From the NCBI RefSeq assembly GCF_013122565.1, contig NZ_CP053258.1: DNA of 64,000 nt, one strand, 5' to 3'. The position numbers were made by a program, and so were the translations under genes. The DNA comes from Escherichia coli (GTDB lineage: Bacteria > Pseudomonadota > Gammaproteobacteria > Enterobacterales > Enterobacteriaceae). The notes under the pieces are model-generated. The model was not told the origin of the DNA. It ran no database searches and saw only the letters and a program-made list of their open reading frames with translations. Below are positions 25,464 to 47,560 of this stretch, piece after piece; the stretch's first letter is position 1, and each line of letters starts with the position of its first letter.

Positions 25464-25476
25464 TAAAAAGAATTCA

Positions 25477-25540
25477 GAATCAGGCCGGGGCGTATCGCGC
25501 TCCGTAAACACGGTCGTACATCCAGCCGGTAGCCTGATTC
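25477..25540. promoter_or_regulatory. Structured iscR-iscS intergenic region (stem-loop; candidate site of RyhB-dependent differential stability)
   Basis: 9-bp arms gaatcaggc / gcctgattc enclosing a GC-rich interior, between the iscR stop and the iscS start codon. Confidence 0.45.
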
Positions 25541-25574
25541 CTTGCATTGAGTGATGTACGGAGTTTATAGAGCA

Positions 25575-32173: not shown

Positions 32174-32950
32174 ATGTCCGAAACAAAAAACGAACTTGAA
32201 GACCTGCTGGAAAAAGCAGCAACCGAACCGGCTCACCGCCCGGCCTTTTTCCGTACTCTACTGGAATCCACCGTCTGGGTGCCGGGTACGGCGGCGCAGG
32301 GCGAGGCAGTAGTTGAAGATAGCGCGCTTGATTTACAGCACTGGGAAAAAGAAGATGGCACCAGCGTCATTCCTTTTTTTACCTCGTTAGAAGCACTTCA
32401 ACAGGCGGTTGAAGACGAACAGGCATTTGTCGTAATGCCCGTTCGCACATTGTTTGAGATGACCCTTGGTGAAACGCTCTTCCTTAATGCCAAACTGCCA
32501 ACCGGTAAAGAGTTTATGCCGCGTGAAATCAGTTTGTTGATTGGTGAAGAAGGGAGTCCGCTGAGTAGTCAGGAAGTACTGGAAGGCGGTGAATCGCTGA
32601 TATTATCGGAAGTCGCAGAGCCGCCAGCACAAATGATTGATTCACTCACCACCTTATTTAAAACCATTAAGCCAGTGAAGCGTGCTTTTATTTGTTCAAT
32701 TAAAGAGAACGAAGAGGCACAGCCTAATTTACTTATTGGCATTGAAGCCGATGGTGATATCGAAGAAATTATTCAGGCGGCGGGAAGTGTAGCGACCGAT
32801 ACATTACCTGGCGATGAACCAATCGATATTTGTCAGGTGAAAAAAGGGGAAAAAGGAATTAGCCACTTTATTACCGAACATATTGCGCCATTCTATGAAC
32901 GTCGCTGGGGTGGTTTTTTGCGTGACTTTAAACAGAATCGGATAATCTAA
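32174..32950 (+). CDS. sseB: Protein SseB (enhances serine sensitivity)
   Basis: MSETKNELEDLLEKAATEPAHRPAFFRTLLEST...; 258 aa from ATG 32174; adjacent to pepB as in K-12. Confidence 0.88.
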   Translation: MSETKNELEDLLEKAATEPAHRPAFFRTLLESTVWVPGTAAQGEAVVEDSALDLQHWEKEDGTSVIPFFTSLEALQQAVEDEQAFVVMPVRTLFEMTLGETLFLNAKLPTGKEFMPREISLLIGEEGSPLSSQEVLEGGESLILSEVAEPPAQMIDSLTTLFKTIKPVKRAFICSIKENEEAQPNLLIGIEADGDIEEIIQAAGSVATDTLPGDEPIDICQVKKGEKGISHFITEHIAPFYERRWGGFLRDFKQNRII

Positions 32951-32953
32951 AAT

Positions 32954-32975
32954 ATGCCGCCCTAAAGGGCGGCAT
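32954..32975. terminator. Stem-loop after sseB, also positioned as terminator of the minus-strand toxin transcript
   Basis: atgccgccc taaa gggcggcat hairpin; on the minus strand it is followed by AUUUUA. Confidence 0.5.
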
Positions 32976-32981
32976 TCTGGC

Positions 32982-33119
32982 TTACCTGCTGTTCTGAAGG
33001 TTGTTAACCACCAGTAAATTGTCGCCGGAGAGACTCCGGTTATTATTTACCTCGGTTAACAGCGCACCAGAAACAATAAGTACGATACAGAAGCACCGTA
33101 TCTTCATTGTGCGGTCCAT
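32982..33119 (-). CDS. Small hydrophobic peptide, candidate type I toxin (TimP/RyfA-encoded-like), copy 1
   Basis: Minus-strand translation MDRTMKIRCFCIVLIVSGALLTEVNNNRSLSGDNLLVVNNLQNSR (internal Met gives 41 aa from 33107); single predicted TM-like segment; lies at the ryfA locus between sseB and sseA; below the 60-aa cutoff of the ORF track. Confidence 0.45.
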   Translation of the reverse strand: MDRTMKIRCFCIVLIVSGALLTEVNNNRSLSGDNLLVVNNLQNSR

Positions 33120-33330
33120 GCGAAGACCGCATCACGACAGCACCACTGGCGATATTGCCGCGATAGCAAGCGCTGAGACGCGCTTGCTCTAAAGGTCGCG
33201 GAACATCCTTTCCTTAAGCCAGCGCCCGCTTGCGAGACGGCGGAAAGGGCCGCAGTGGATAATACACTAACAGAACAATAATAACTCTCTTTTGCTTGAC
33301 AAAAAGAGAGTTACTGGCGAGTATTGTCTC

Positions 33331-33427
33331 CGCTGAGACGCGCTTGCATTACTACGGTAATACAACCTGCTGGAAAGGCCGCGAACCAAACCGGCAACAA
33401 ATAGCCGCCTGATTTTGGCGGTTTTTT
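33331..33427 (+). ncRNA. Divergent small RNA (TimR/RyfB-like antitoxin candidate), copy 1
   Basis: Sigma70-like promoter TTGACA (33296-33301), 17-bp spacer, GAGTAT (33319-33324); terminator ccgcc...ggcgg plus T6 at 33405-33427; 5-prime 17 nt (33331-33347) are the exact complement of the toxin mRNA leader segment at 33171-33187. Confidence 0.45.
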
Positions 33428-33552
33428 GTTGTTTAAAGAAAGTGAAATTACACGTTTAAGTAATATCTTTTATTGGTTAGTATTTTTAATATTAAGCGAA
33501 AATTGTTTATATTTGTCTGAATTCGGACTAATAAGTCAGGTTATTTTAATAT

Positions 33553-33628
33553 CGAACATATTGCGCCATTCTATGAATGTCGCTGGGGTGGGCTTTTGCG
33601 TGACTTTAAACAGAATCGGATAATCTAA
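33553..33628 (+). pseudogene. Duplicated 3-prime fragment of sseB (unit 2)
   Basis: Near-identical copy of sseB 32875-32950 including the stop codon and followed by a copy of the terminator hairpin; no upstream sseB sequence. Confidence 0.8.
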
Positions 33629-33659
33629 AATATGCCGCCCCAAAGGGCGGCATTCGGGC

Positions 33660-33797
33660 TTACTTGCTGCTCTGACGGTTGTTAACCACCAGTAAATTGT
33701 CGCCGGAGAGACTCCGGTTATTATTTACCTCGGTTAACAGCGCACCAGAAACAATAAGTACGATACAGAAGCACCGTATCTTCATTGTGCGGTCCAT
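33660..33797 (-). CDS. Small hydrophobic peptide, candidate type I toxin, copy 2
   Basis: Same ORF as copy 1 with identical hydrophobic core; C-terminal tail differs (…VVNNRQSSK). Confidence 0.45.
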   Translation of the reverse strand: MDRTMKIRCFCIVLIVSGALLTEVNNNRSLSGDNLLVVNNRQSSK

Positions 33798-34008
33798 GCG
33801 AAGACCGCATCACGACAGCACCACTGGCGATATTGCCGCGATAGCAAGCGCTGTGAAACACCTGCATTTACGGCCACGGAACATCCTTTCCTAAAGCCAG
33901 CGCCCGTTTGCGAGACGGCGGAAAGGGCCGGTGTCGATAATACGCTAAATAAACAATAATTACTCTCTTTTGCTTGACAAAAAGAGAGTTGCTGGCGAAT
34001 ATTGCTCT

Positions 34009-34109
34009 GCTGTGAAGCACCTGCGTTGCTCATGCAACACAAGTCAATCTGCTGGAGAGGCCGCGAACCAAACCGGCAACAAATAACCGCCTGATCTTGG
34101 CGGTTTTTT
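34009..34109 (+). ncRNA. Divergent small RNA (TimR/RyfB-like), copy 2
   Basis: TTGACA (33974-33979), 17-bp spacer, GAATAT (33997-34002); terminator at 34087-34109; 5-prime gctgtgaagcacctgc matches mRNA-leader segment 33850-33865 (two positions form G-U pairs). Confidence 0.45.
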
Positions 34110-34234
34110 GTTGCTTAAAGAAAGTGAATTTACATGTTTAAGTAATATCTTTTACCGGTTAGTATTTTTAATATTGAGCGGGATTTGTTTATATTTGTCT
34201 GAATTCGGACTAATAAGCCAGGTCATTTTAATAT

Positions 34235-34310
34235 CGAACATATTGCGCCATTCTATGAACGTCGCTGGGGTGGTTTTTTGCGTGACTTTAAACAGAATCG
34301 GATAATCTAA
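34235..34310 (+). pseudogene. Duplicated 3-prime fragment of sseB (unit 3)
   Basis: Identical to sseB 32875-32950 including stop; followed by terminator hairpin copy. Confidence 0.8.
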
Positions 34311-34341
34311 AATATGCCGCCCCAAAGGGCGGCATTCGGGC

Positions 34342-34479
34342 TTACCTGCTGTTCTGAAGGTTGTTAACCACCAATAAATTGTTGCCGGAGAGACTCCGGT
34401 TATTATTTACCTCAGTTAACAGCGCACCAGAAACAATAAGTACGATACAGAAGCACCGTATCTTCATTGTGCGGTCCAT
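34342..34479 (-). CDS. Small hydrophobic peptide, candidate type I toxin, copy 3
   Basis: Same ORF; relative to copy 1 two synonymous changes and one D-to-N change (…SLSGNNLLVV…). Confidence 0.45.
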   Translation of the reverse strand: MDRTMKIRCFCIVLIVSGALLTEVNNNRSLSGNNLLVVNNLQNSR

Positions 34480-34693
34480 GCGAAGACCGCATCACGACAG
34501 CACCACTGGCGATATTGCCGCGATAGCAAGCACTGTGGGGTGCCTGTATTTACGGTCATGGAACATCCTTTCCTAAAGCCAGTGCCCGTTTGCGAGACGG
34601 CGAAAAGGGCCGTTAAGAATAATACTCTCATGTTTGAATAATTACTCTGTTTATTATCTTGACATGGCCAGGCATAAAAGAGAGTATTTCAAC

Positions 34694-34793
34694 ACTGTGG
34701 GGTGCCTGCGTTGCTCCGGCAACACAAGCCAACCTGCTGGAAAGGCCGCGAACCAGACCAGCAATAAAAAACCGCCAAATTCGGCGGTTTTTT
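34694..34793 (+). ncRNA. Divergent small RNA (TimR/RyfB-like), copy 3
   Basis: TTGACA (34659-34664), 17-bp spacer, GAGTAT (34682-34687); terminator accgcc...ggcgg plus T6 at 34771-34793; 5-prime cactgtggggtgcctg equals mRNA-leader segment 34531-34546. Confidence 0.45.
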
Positions 34794-34809
34794 ATTGCCT
34801 GTAAAAAGC

Positions 34810-35655
34810 TTATTTCACTGGCTCAACCGGTAAATCTGCCCGCGCGCCCCATTCACTCCATGCGCCGTCGTACAGTTTCACGTTTGGCACATCCAGCGTC
34901 GCGAGTGCCAACAAAACCACGGCTGCTGTTACACCAGAGCCGCAGCTGACGATAATCGGTTTGTCATAGCTGACGCCGCGACCAAAAAATATCGCATCCA
35001 GTTCATCGGTCGTTTTTAGTTCGCCTTCGCGCACCAGTTCCGTCCACGGAACGTTCAATGCACCGGGAATATGTCCGCGACGTAAACCTGGGCGAGGTTC
35101 ATCAACTTCTGCGTTAAAACGTGCAGCCGGGCGGGCATCAACAATTTGCGCCGTATTTTCATGGCTTGCCAATAATACATCGGTTACTTTCACCACGGCT
35201 TCAGGATTAAACGCGGCGTTAAACTCTCCTTCCGGCAGCTCTACTGCACCTTCTTCTAACAACAGATCATCGCGCTGCCAGCCTGCAAGTCCACCCCCCA
35301 GAATCGACACTTTCTCTACACCAAAGGTGCGCAGCATCCACCATGCTCGTGGGGCTGAGAAAAGATTACCTTCGTCATAGACAATCAGGTGCTTATCCTG
35401 GTTAACGCCTAATTCACGCATTGCCACGGCGAACGTTTCCGGGCGCGGCAGCATGTGCGGAAGCGGGGAAGTGTGATCAGAAAGCGCTTCGATATCAAAA
35501 AACACTGCGCCGGGAATATGTCCATTCAGATACTCCTGAGCAACGTTACGATCTTCCTGTCCAGGCGACGCCATGCGGGCATCGATAATCTGAATTTCCG
35601 GGTCATCAATATGTTCGGCGAGCCAGTCGGCTCCTACAAACCATGTCGTGGACAT
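34810..35655 (-). CDS. sseA: 3-mercaptopyruvate sulfurtransferase (rhodanese family)
   Basis: Translation from internal ATG begins MSTTWFVGADWLAEHIDDPEIQIIDARM...; tandem rhodanese domains; 281 aa. Confidence 0.92.
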   Translation of the reverse strand: MSTTWFVGADWLAEHIDDPEIQIIDARMASPGQEDRNVAQEYLNGHIPGAVFFDIEALSDHTSPLPHMLPRPETFAVAMRELGVNQDKHLIVYDEGNLFSAPRAWWMLRTFGVEKVSILGGGLAGWQRDDLLLEEGAVELPEGEFNAAFNPEAVVKVTDVLLASHENTAQIVDARPAARFNAEVDEPRPGLRRGHIPGALNVPWTELVREGELKTTDELDAIFFGRGVSYDKPIIVSCGSGVTAAVVLLALATLDVPNVKLYDGAWSEWGARADLPVEPVK

Positions 35656-46344: not shown

Positions 46345-47463
46345 ATGCATAACCAGGCTCCAATTCAACGTAGAAAATCAACACGTATTTACGTTGGGAA
46401 TGTGCCGATTGGCGATGGTGCTCCCATCGCCGTACAGTCCATGACCAATACGCGTACGACAGACGTCGAAGCAACGGTCAATCAAATCAAGGCGCTGGAA
46501 CGCGTTGGCGCTGATATCGTCCGTGTATCCGTACCGACGATGGACGCGGCAGAAGCGTTCAAACTCATCAAACAGCAGGTTAACGTGCCGCTGGTGGCTG
46601 ACATCCACTTCGACTATCGCATTGCGCTGAAAGTAGCGGAATACGGCGTCGATTGTCTGCGTATTAACCCTGGCAATATCGGTAATGAAGAGCGTATTCG
46701 CATGGTGGTTGACTGTGCGCGCGATAAAAACATTCCAATCCGTATTGGCGTTAACGCCGGATCGCTGGAAAAAGATCTGCAAGAAAAGTATGGCGAACCG
46801 ACGCCGCAGGCGTTGCTGGAATCCGCCATGCGTCATGTTGATCATCTCGATCGCCTGAACTTCGATCAGTTCAAAGTTAGCGTGAAAGCGTCTGACGTCT
46901 TCCTCGCTGTTGAGTCTTATCGTTTGCTGGCAAAACAGATCGATCAGCCACTGCATCTGGGGATCACCGAAGCCGGTGGTGCGCGCAGTGGGGCAGTAAA
47001 ATCCGCCATTGGTTTAGGTCTGCTGCTGTCTGAAGGCATCGGCGACACGCTGCGCGTATCGCTGGCGGCCGATCCGGTCGAAGAGATCAAAGTCGGTTTC
47101 GATATTTTGAAATCGCTGCGTATCCGTTCGCGCGGGATCAACTTCATCGCCTGCCCAACCTGTTCGCGTCAGGAGTTTGATGTTATCGGTACGGTTAACG
47201 CGTTGGAGCAACGCCTGGAAGATATCATCACTCCGATGGACGTTTCGATAATCGGCTGCGTGGTGAATGGCCCAGGTGAGGCGCTGGTTTCTACACTCGG
47301 CGTCACCGGCGGCAACAAGAAAAGCGGCCTCTATGAAGATGGCGTGCGCAAAGACCGTCTGGACAACAACGATATGATCGACCAGCTGGAAGCACGCATT
47401 CGTGCGAAAGCCAGTCAGCTGGACGAAGCGCGTCGAATTGACGTTCAGCAGGTTGAAAAATAA
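46345..47463 (+). CDS. ispG: 4-hydroxy-3-methylbut-2-enyl diphosphate synthase
   Basis: Fe-S ligands CPTCSR...GCVVNGPGE; 372 aa. Confidence 0.96.
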
Positions 47464-47465
47464 TA

Positions 47466-47560
47466 ACGTGATGGGAAGCGCCTCGCTTCCCGTGTATGAT
47501 TGAACCCGCATGGCTCCCGAAACATTGAGGGAAGCGTTGAGGGTTCATTTTTATATTCAG
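47466..47560 (+). ncRNA. sroE: Possible SroE-like sRNA in the ispG-hisS intergenic region
   Basis: Position-only inference: I recall an sRNA (SroE) in the ispG-hisS spacer of E. coli; region contains hairpin gggaagcg-cctc-gcttccc (47473-47491). Sequence identity was not verified. Confidence 0.25.

Follow-up and report, generated by a model that had tools for sequence, protein, structure and literature searches.

A three-unit timPR (ryfA/ryfB) array with predicted copy-specific antitoxin pairing in Escherichia coli

The interval between sseB and sseA in the Escherichia coli DNA analysed here (a stretch of 64,000 nucleotides, termed the window) holds three tandem units of ~680 bp, which very probably represent the known enterobacterial timPR (ryfA/ryfB) type I toxin-antitoxin locus in three copies, with copy-specific pairing predicted between each antitoxin and its toxin mRNA. 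Each unit comprises a ryfA/timP toxin mRNA on the minus strand and, divergent from it, an sRNA of ~100 nt on the plus strand. The flanking context, with sseB at 32174-32950 (+) and sseA at 34810-35655 (-), matches that of timPR in Escherichia, Shigella and Salmonella, and the genes flanking the array are 97-99% identical to E. coli. The timPR system, its mechanism and copy-specific recognition through the variable region of the leader are already published, the last in 2017, and the array illustrates well, in a natural setting, how an antitoxin sRNA acting in trans diversifies jointly with its target.

Organisation and family membership of the array

The anatomy of the array and the family membership of its parts are established in the present analysis, and the features are as follows.

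32949..33253, minus strand: unit 1 ryfA/timP toxin mRNA (leader, ORF, terminator); Rfam RF00126, 314 bits
32982..33107, minus strand: unit 1 TimP ORF, 41 codons plus stop, MKIRCFCIVLIVSGALLTEVNNNRSLSGDNLLVVNNLQNSR; NF040796 toxic_TimP, 84.2 bits
33171..33187, minus strand: unit 1 TimR target site in leader SL2, allele A, mRNA GCAAGCGCGUCUCAGCG; Fris variant CGCGT
33296..33324, plus strand: unit 1 sRNA promoter TTGACA-N17-GAGTAT, read from the sequence
33331..33431, plus strand: unit 1 TimR/RyfB-type sRNA
33545..33628, plus strand: duplicated sseB 3' fragment at the start of unit 2; repeat family D1
33627..33931, minus strand: unit 2 ryfA/timP toxin mRNA; Rfam RF00126, 316 bits
33660..33785, minus strand: unit 2 TimP ORF (...NNRQSSK); NF040796, 84.3 bits
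33849..33865, minus strand: unit 2 TimR target site, allele B, mRNA GCAGGUGUUUCACAGCG; Fris variant TGTTT, ryfA2 type (PMC5333039)
33974..34002, plus strand: unit 2 sRNA promoter TTGACA-N17-GAATAT
34008..34113, plus strand: unit 2 TimR/RyfB-type sRNA, seed UGCUGUGAAGCACCUGC, terminator 34085-34105
34227..34310, plus strand: duplicated sseB 3' fragment at the start of unit 3; repeat family D1
34309..34613, minus strand: unit 3 ryfA/timP toxin mRNA; Rfam RF00126, 324 bits
34342..34467, minus strand: unit 3 TimP ORF; NF040796, 84.2 bits
34531..34546, minus strand: unit 3 TimR target site, allele C, mRNA CAGGCACCCCACAGUG; Fris variant CACCC
34659..34687, plus strand: unit 3 sRNA promoter TTGACA-N17-GAGTAT
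34693..34794, plus strand: unit 3 TimR/RyfB-type sRNA, seed CACUGUGGGGUGCCUGC

The ryfA covariance model RF00126 gave three matches that span its full length, model positions 1-296, at 314-324 bits (gathering score, 80 bits). In keeping with TimP as a small protein with a signal-like hydrophobic N-terminus, the three 41-residue ORFs, with annotated starts (MKIR...) at the ATGs of 33107, 33785 and 34467, all match NCBIfam NF040796 toxic_TimP at 84 bits, the cut-off being 45 bits; their homologues are named TimP by NCBI. The duplicated sseB 3' fragment with which unit 2 begins is labelled a partial sseB pseudogene in RefSeq loci. Structural-switch elements are present in the leaders, which are 100% identical among the three units from the ATG to SL2. 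The sites were placed from the text, not the figures, of PMC13000454, and hence at approximate positions: units 2 and 3 show GCUGGC (site 1), GCCAGU (site 3), G(G/A)CCGU (site 2) and GCGGUC (site 4), and site 2 of unit 1 reads GACCUU.

All three divergent sRNA genes have their own promoter, a terminator hairpin and a 5' seed of 16-17 nt complementary to SL2. The promoters conform to TTGACA-N17-GA(G/A)TAT: the 17-nt spacer given in the preliminary description is present in all three, and the -10 hexamer GAGTAT ascribed to every unit is found in units 1 and 3, with GAATAT in unit 2. In unit 1 the seed (33331-33347) is followed by hairpin 1, a conserved hairpin, the terminator (33403-33423) and a T run. 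Conservation of the 3' scaffold and terminator, claimed for the whole set, is partial, since the second hairpin is 90-97% and the terminator 77-94% identical among units and the first hairpin only 46-83%. This architecture of variable seed, covarying hairpin 1, conserved hairpin and terminator is common to the Salmonella and Erwinia homologues. No Rfam model for TimR/STnc2070 was matched at E ≤ 1, and Rfam 15 appears to be without a family for TimR, so assignment of the sRNAs rests on synteny, architecture and alignment; their sole Rfam match is a sub-threshold one to sraL (32.4 bits vs 39).

The closest systems described are those of Shigella dysenteriae and Salmonella. S. dysenteriae carries two tandem units, ryfA1/ryfB1 and ryfA2/ryfB2, as opposed to three here, at the same sseB–sseA locus, with divergent transcripts of ~100 nt and ~17 nt of complementarity that overlaps the variable region of the leader, as in the array (Fris et al. 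2017, PMC5333039). Four leader variants were described in that study, three of which, CGCGT, TGTTT and CACCC, correspond to units 1, 2 and 3, respectively; ryfA was taken there as non-coding, and the matching of RyfB2 with RyfA2 and the three-way set are absent from it. The toxin (NF040796) and mRNA (RF00126) of Salmonella Typhimurium timP-TimR are homologous to those of the array, its divergent sRNA pairs with SL2 through the 5' end, and SL3-SL4 together with the pseudoknot sites is conserved between its timP and the array. In contrast, Salmonella timP is single copy and encodes a toxin of 38 residues instead of 41. The Salmonella seed differs from those of the window, while that of S. diarizonae is close to allele C.

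Seed-target complementarity and covariation

Complementarity between each sRNA and the leader of its own unit, its covariation and the predicted energies were likewise established. The leader and sRNA repeats lie where they had been described, with 33171-33187 identical to 33331-33347 (17/17) and 34531-34546 identical to 34693-34708 (16/16), at seed-to-leader distances of 159-162 nt; the sRNA copy starts 6-7 nt past the -10 hexamer in the three units, and in unit 1 the target segment constitutes the 5' arm and loop of the predicted SL2 hairpin. In unit 2, 33850-33865 and 34009-34024 agree at 15 of 16 positions. Both G-U-compatible differences previously placed within this 16-mer are indeed compatible, one lying inside it and the second being the next base. 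The internal difference, leader A against sRNA G, sets an mRNA U opposite an sRNA G, and this stable U·G wobble recurs in every type B unit seen, which argues that selection acts on pairing and not on sequence identity. Measured from the annotated TimP ATG, the leader segment spans the interval 64-80 nt upstream; the interval of 50-70 nt originally given holds only from an in-frame ATG four codons further up (52-68 nt).

Identity between leader and sRNA ends within 17-19 nt, so that the segments are not part of a larger duplication, a possible artefact raised at the outset. The within-unit co-variation of the preliminary description was confirmed, the three versions differing at 8 of 17 positions and always on both partners. 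Divergence among units is concentrated in the SL2 site and seed (59-71% identity), and the SL3-SL4 leader and the ORF are 100% and 95-98% identical, respectively.

Duplex prediction for all nine sRNA x mRNA combinations ranked the cognate partner first for each sRNA and for each mRNA. Seed duplexes (sRNA nt 1-22 against the leader) reached -35.9 to -37.0 kcal/mol for cognate and -19.3 to -25.1 kcal/mol for non-cognate pairs, and 24-nt seeds against mRNA nt 51-100 gave -15.1 to -25.8 kcal/mol for the non-cognate pairs of the window. Cofolding of full-length molecules yielded ddG values of -18.5 to -23.9 on the diagonal and -6.6 to -17.2 off it, and cognate partners again ranked first in both directions. 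The predicted cognate advantage is 10-20 kcal/mol for seeds and 3-17 kcal/mol in cofolding. Duplex prediction between full-length sRNAs and full leaders was discarded: it returned -63 to -76 kcal/mol for every pair through absurd long-range pairings, and because it disregards intramolecular structure, seed-only duplexes and cofolding were used instead.

Across eight distinct leader/sRNA pairs, 92.9% of cells are paired intermolecularly and changes on both sides were observed in 7 of 21 pairs. The covariation score was 0.425 against 0.225±0.026 for shuffled sets, none of 500 shuffles reaching the observed value, and slid registers paired at just 25-50%. With seven distinct specificities (window A, B and C, S. 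diarizonae and three Erwinia units), no other of the 5040 permutations does as well as the cognate assignment. The match between leader and sRNA therefore exceeds chance, and the compensatory changes are confined to the pairing segments. The Salmonella papers had noted a species-level co-variation of TimR with its own timP (Fig. 8B). Overall, the proposal of three specificity-diversified cognate pairs is supported, as energies, confined compensatory changes and published experiments on the same type of locus agree.

Predicted mechanism and strength of insulation

For transcription, in vivo pairing, the repression mechanism and the specificity of one pair, the model below draws on the literature on related loci. 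Each minus-strand mRNA of ~300 nt would encode the 41-residue inner-membrane toxin TimP, and the sRNA would use its first 16-17 nt to bind the leader of its own unit at the 5' arm and loop of SL2. As in Salmonella, such binding would keep the leader pseudoknot needed for 30S recruitment from forming, blocking TimP translation. In Salmonella the 18-nt TimR/timP pairing was proven with compensatory mutants and in vitro translation (Andresen 2020, PMC7667032), the TimR binding site lies within SL2, and translation is unaffected by SL2 deletion (PNAS 2024, PMC11228461). The structural-switch model for timP, as set out in the text of its description, involves a site 1/site 3 pseudoknot, a site 2/site 4 pairing and an SD-sequestering SL4 (NAR 2026, PMC13000454). 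Being dispensable for translation itself, SL2 would be free to vary, which makes the joint diversification of sRNA and target possible, and the A, B and C versions with their matching sRNA changes lead to the prediction that each antitoxin recognises mainly its own toxin mRNA. We infer from this model that the array would be insulated three ways.

Some degree of cross-talk between A and B may occur, given that non-cognate duplexes are appreciable. The three sRNAs could even be partly redundant, each TimR repressing more than one timP mRNA, so that the array would raise dosage instead of providing independent control; shared flanking bases (GCUG..., ...CUUGC/CCUGC) and the conserved scaffold would permit such cross-repression. 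Non-cognate seed duplexes are as strong as -24 to -26 kcal/mol, the cofold ddG values of R1xP2 (-17.2, against a cognate -20.1) and R2xP1 (-16.4) are near cognate values, A and C share 13 Watson-Crick and 2 G·U pairs of 20 in register, and the sRNA adjacent to timP is of a different type in ~29% of E. coli genomes. Redundancy is nevertheless unlikely, as overproduction of RyfB1 in S. dysenteriae lowered RyfA1 but not RyfA2 (PMC5333039), each intact leader among the 30 examined has a fully matching sRNA within its own locus, and the differences occupy the loop and upper stem of SL2, the expected starting point of pairing. The analogous zorO-orzO/zorP-orzP loci of E. coli O157:H7, which are also tandem duplicated type I loci with divergent trans-acting sRNAs, discriminate with three variable nucleotides: the sRNAs bind through an 18-nt 5' seed, far upstream of the RBS, and cognate specificity resides in a short variable region, V1 (Wen et al. 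2014, PMC3919570). Their toxin and RNA families are unrelated to timPR, and zorO requires 5' processing and RNase III, in contrast to activation of timP by a structural switch. Ibs/Sib of E. coli offers a further copy-specific comparison among paralogous type I systems (Han et al. 2010, PMC2943612); Sib RNAs, however, are cis-encoded and fully overlap their targets, and the Ibs toxin family is unrelated to TimP.

A still less probable reading holds that ryfA is mainly a regulatory non-coding RNA, acting on ompC, stress responses and fimbriae, with the divergent RNA as a copy-specific antagonist in a form of sRNA-on-sRNA control. Loss of ompC on RyfA1 overproduction, with no detectable translation, was seen by Fris and colleagues (PMC5333039), and ryfA phenotypes are reported in UPEC and APEC studies. 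TimP, however, is a translated, toxic protein that localises to the membrane, and its translation is blocked by TimR (PMC7667032); the three ORFs of the window remain intact, at 95-98% conservation, next to RNA segments that diverge. The two roles can, moreover, coexist.

A second contact was also considered, made by the conserved sRNA loop AAGGCCGC with either site 4, which flanks SL4 on its 5' side, or the 5' end of the mRNA, and was rejected as a general feature. The complementarity amounts to 9 nt in E. coli, and in Escherichia and Salmonella the contact was not above that of shuffled loops (fraction at least as good, 0.09-0.86). Erwinia phyllosphaerae alone stands out (-27.8 vs -18.1±2.8; 0 of 300 shuffles). 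That TimR represses even when SL4 is replaced (PNAS 2024, PMC11228461) counts against a loop–SL4 contact, and a likeness of the loop to 'site 2' (GGCCG) is speculative.

Related loci and possible cassette dynamics

Alleles A, B and C are all common in E. coli genomes. RefSeq annotates one to three timP genes at the sseB–sseA locus, and further three-unit arrays exist, E. coli MEW (NZ_CM192120) being one example; in the totals from DNA similarity searches, K-12-type remnants count as extra places. In the K-12-type layout, seen in ~29% of complete E. coli genomes, the sRNA adjoining timP is non-cognate and the cognate TimR is located in a remnant second unit; in strain 19KM1831 the neighbouring sRNA is also of another type. 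Adjacency of an sRNA to timP is thus not always a sign of the cognate partner, and these sequences predict that control of the K-12 toxin falls to the distal sRNA and not to the adjacent one. Orphan antitoxins of zor-orz similarly occur in many strains (PMC11264685).

Precise ~160-nt deletions between the direct repeats, which fuse leader site to sRNA seed, have arisen independently in E. coli (strain 400660) and S. enterica subsp. arizonae. These, along with the reshuffling of units, would suit a view in which the segments, as direct repeats separated by 160 nt, are kept identical by recombination or gene conversion, as a DNA by-product and not through selection on RNA pairing, a view made highly improbable by the A/G difference that type B pairs retain unhomogenised, by several other pairs that differ solely by G·U-compatible changes, by the sharp end of identity at the pairing segment and by the Salmonella compensatory mutagenesis that proves pairing functional.

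A tentative picture, slightly less likely than not, is that of E. coli timPR as recombining cassettes with few mutually insulated alleles (A, B and C, plus a fourth sRNA type that is less frequent), whose units may be gained, lost and reshuffled, the ~29% of genomes keeping a non-cognate orphan TimR beside timP and the repeat geometry offering a way to delete both promoters in one step. No population-level description of timPR cassette dynamics was found in the searchable literature. Discovery value is small, as RefSeq already annotates arrays with three timP genes, and the additions are modest; the discrete E. coli alleles, the distal-sRNA control predicted in K-12 and the repeat-driven co-deletions could be useful to workers on timPR.

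A profile search of genome contigs with the TimP alignment identified 7 loci, used for the Salmonella and Erwinia comparisons. Besides the non-cognate adjacency of K-12-type loci and the precise inter-repeat deletions, the modest additions include an independently diversified pair in Erwinia.

Layout and identity of the array

The three-unit array is a timPR (ryfA/ryfB) type I toxin-antitoxin system. The tandem units fill 32867-34830 with periods of 678 and 682 bp, and the genes on either side display 97-99% identity to E. coli, which marks the source as an E. coli/Shigella-type genome. Each unit carries on the minus strand a full-length ryfA RNA (Rfam RF00126; 314-324 bits against a gathering score of 80), inside which lies an intact 41-codon ORF (MKIRCFCIVLIVSGALLTE...); all three ORFs match NCBIfam NF040796 ‘toxic_TimP’ with 84 bits (cut-off 45). 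Units 2 and 3 each open with 84 nt duplicated from the 3' end of sseB, and such copies are labelled in E. coli RefSeq entries as partial sseB pseudogenes.

Features of the array and its flanks
32174-32950, plus strand, sseB, one flank of the array
32949-33253, minus strand, ryfA RNA of unit 1
33627-33931, minus strand, ryfA RNA of unit 2
34309-34613, minus strand, ryfA RNA of unit 3
34810-35655, minus strand, sseA, other flank of the array

Two full-length minus-strand matches to Rfam IS128 (33385-33595 and 34067-34277; 203 and 225 bits) lie antisense to the sRNA and cover the spacer between units, running from the sRNA terminator as far as the copied sseB fragment; this spacer is absent from unit 3. 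Ordinary Rfam matches to the iscRS stability element (25464-25573) and sroE (47463-47554) fit the isc-sseB-sseA region of the E. coli chromosome.

ryfA codes for the toxic inner-membrane protein TimP, and 18 nt at the 5' end of the divergent sRNA TimR pair with the timP 5'UTR, a pairing proven with compensatory mutants and through in vitro translation; in all species examined by Andresen et al. (2020, PMC7667032) the sRNA found upstream of timP is complementary to the leader of that same gene. The TimR site lies in stem-loop 2 (SL2), deletion of which leaves translation unaffected, while TimR binding destabilises an SL1-SL3 pseudoknot required for initiation (PNAS 2024, PMC11228461); a structural switch (sites 1-2 / 1-3 / 2-4) was added later (NAR 2026, PMC13000454). 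Shigella dysenteriae has two tandem ryfA copies, each with a divergent transcript of ~100 nt (ryfB1 / ryfB2) whose complementarity overlaps a ‘variable region’ of the ryfA leader, and RyfB1 overproduction decreased RyfA1 and did not lower RyfA2 (Fris et al. 2017, PMC5333039). Of the four Escherichia/Shigella versions of that region (TGTTT, CGCGT, CCCCC and CACCC; PMC5333039), the array holds CGCGT in unit 1, TGTTT in unit 2 and CACCC in unit 3, termed here alleles A, B and C. Copy-specific pairing is already known from Fris et al. 2017, and the array exemplifies a system and a specificity principle that have both been described before. Among its closest analogues, both from other families, are Ibs/Sib (PMC2943612) and zorO-orzO/zorP-orzP, where recognition is decided by a 3-nt V1 region (PMC3919570).

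Copy-specific pairing of leaders and sRNAs

The preliminary description proposed that the sRNA seed (its first 16-17 nt) repeats a leader segment in each unit. In unit 1, 33171-33187 equals 33331-33347 (17/17) and in unit 3, 34531-34546 equals 34693-34708 (16/16), as claimed; the coordinates also hold for unit 2 (33850-33865 and 34009-34024), with 15/16 identity, although only one of its two differences falls within the 16-mer, the second being at the next base. The mismatch (A in the leader, G in the sRNA) yields a U·G wobble, and the adjoining base differs likewise. Identity ends at 17-19 nt, so no larger duplication encompasses the segments. The leader segment lies upstream of the toxin start, at 64-80 nt from the annotated TimP ATG rather than 50-70 nt. 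The plus-strand copy begins 6-7 nt past a promoter, which reads TTGACA-N17-GAGTAT in units 1 and 3 but GAATAT at the second box in unit 2, and a terminator hairpin with a T run follows ~70 nt downstream in each unit.

In the predicted folds a hairpin occupies the SL2 position, and the variable segment falls within its 5' arm and loop; the leader is otherwise invariant. Aligned in register, the alleles differ at positions 2, 6, 8, 9, 10, 11, 12 and 14 of 17, and the differences are mirrored on the partner RNA, except at position 10, which is wobble-compatible instead. The sRNA 3' scaffold, described as conserved, is so in its conserved hairpin but not in hairpin 1.

Pairwise identity among units 1-3
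SL2 site paired to seed: 59-71%
sRNA seed: 65-71%
sRNA hairpin 1: 46-83%
Inter-promoter region, unit 3 vs units 1 and 2: 56%
Leader, ATG to SL2 (SL3-SL4): 100%
TimP ORF: 95-98%
Conserved sRNA hairpin: 90-97%

Duplex energies, cofolding and covariation support the reading as three specificity-diversified cognate sRNA-target pairs. Over the nine sRNA and mRNA combinations, seeds (nt 1-22) gave -35.9 to -37.0 kcal/mol for cognate and -19.3 to -25.1 kcal/mol for non-cognate duplexes. When each full sRNA was cofolded with each full leader, cognate ddG values were -20.1, -23.9 and -18.5 against -6.6 to -17.2 for non-cognate ones, and the cognate partner ranked first in each row and column. Eight distinct natural leader/sRNA pairs display 92.9% paired intermolecular cells, two-sided changes in 7/21 pairs and a covariation score of 0.425 (shuffled, 0.225 ± 0.026; reached in 0/500 shuffles), while slid registers give only 25-50% pairing. 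When all 5,040 permutations of seven distinct specificities are ranked, the cognate assignment alone comes first, with mean seed energies of -37.4 (diagonal) and -21.9 kcal/mol (off-diagonal).

Partial cross-talk among the three pairs is possible on energies alone but rather unlikely; both the RyfB1/RyfA1 experiment of 2017 (PMC5333039) and the zor-orz precedent (PMC3919570) favour discrimination. It is still less probable that ryfA has a non-coding regulatory role in place of its toxin role, which such a role may accompany but does not supplant. Homogenisation of two direct repeats by recombination, without RNA pairing, is mechanistically possible, and precise deletions of ~160 nt exactly between leader target site and sRNA seed in E. 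coli and S. arizonae speak for it, but it is very improbable as the explanation, because the wobble-compatible differences fixed in type B pairs, together with compensatory mutagenesis in the literature (PMC7667032), show that pairing, not identity, is maintained. The deletions (L015, E. coli 400660, 2650-2840; L023, S. enterica subsp. arizonae CCUG 6322T, 2200-2460; coordinates within each locus) eliminate the two promoters along with the 5' portion of the timP leader, and arose independently in two genera.

Alleles and mismatched units across genomes

Small additions to published work are the non-cognate adjacency of K-12-type loci, the repeat-mediated co-deletions and an Erwinia pair. The timPR locus, with at most three units, is present in 5,425 of 5,426 complete E. 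coli genomes; the A-B-C array recurs in strain MEW, and strain 19KM1831 also has three units. The 200-nt leader-to-seed core was found at >=95% identity in 2,966 (A), 470 (B) and 576 (C) complete E. coli genomes. In the window and 19 sampled loci, the cognate sRNA adjoins 27 of 30 intact leaders and lies elsewhere in the same locus for the other three. In unit 1 of 19KM1831 (L001, 1500-1720), a type A sRNA adjoins a type C leader, the type C sRNA being in unit 3, which is evidence of recombination between units. K-12-type loci (L003, E. coli O16:H48, 2205-2800; also L007) hold a single timP with a type B leader and an adjacent divergent, non-cognate type A sRNA; the type B sRNA is found 326 nt beyond, in what remains of a second unit, from which the sseB fragment, the ORF and most of the leader are gone. 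This hybrid core occurs in 1,584 of the 5,426 genomes (>=95% identity). Orphan sRNAs are of type B in L008 and L010 and of a fourth type in L009 (E. coli FDAARGOS_1291), where a second sRNA copy (~2610-2690) bears the seed GAGTAGACGAGATACACTTGC, with no matching leader in that locus.

Scanning species-representative genomes yielded seven loci. The seed spans 20 nt in S. enterica subsp. diarizonae (18 Watson-Crick and 2 G·U pairs) and 25 nt in Erwinia sp. OLFS4. Erwinia phyllosphaerae (L025, 2348-3215) has two tandem units (period 568 bp) with different matched seed/SL2 pairs, an independent within-genome diversification.

Conserved sRNA hairpin and promoter region

Aligned array, Salmonella and Erwinia sRNAs share a variable seed, a covarying hairpin 1, a conserved hairpin and a terminator; Rfam contains no TimR-type sRNA model. 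The loop AAGGCCGC of the conserved hairpin (33373-33381, 34055-34063 and 34740-34748) is unchanged from Escherichia through to Erwinia. Within this loop lies GGCCG, which forms the core of ‘site 2’ (GGCCGU) in the timP switch as published (PMC13000454), so pairing with site 1 or site 4 is conceivable in principle; the energies were not significant in Escherichia or Salmonella. A second contact of this loop with the SL4 flank or mRNA 5' end did not exceed chance outside Erwinia phyllosphaerae, and a loop-SL4 contact is also at odds with the SL4-replacement result (PNAS 2024, PMC11228461). Only in E. phyllosphaerae is the loop complementary to the SL4 5' arm and loop, over 15 nt (13 Watson-Crick and 2 G·U), far beyond shuffled controls.

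The conserved hairpin (33365-33395, 34047-34077 and 34732-34762) resembles the sseB 5' coding region on the same strand (32201-32232, codons ~12-22), with 27/32 identical positions and two gaps (score 35; maximum of 25 in 500 shuffles), a likeness equalled by none of 865 tiles elsewhere in the window. Both are of the same sense and so are not complementary.

The promoter region of unit 3 differs from those of units 1 and 2, in which an inverted repeat of 10-14 bp (ACTCTCTTTT..AAAAGAGAGT; 33280-33315 and 33962-33989) flanks the sRNA -35 box TTGACA and a minus-strand TTGTCA hexamer overlaps it. The inverted repeat could be an operator or reflect shared divergent promoter architecture.
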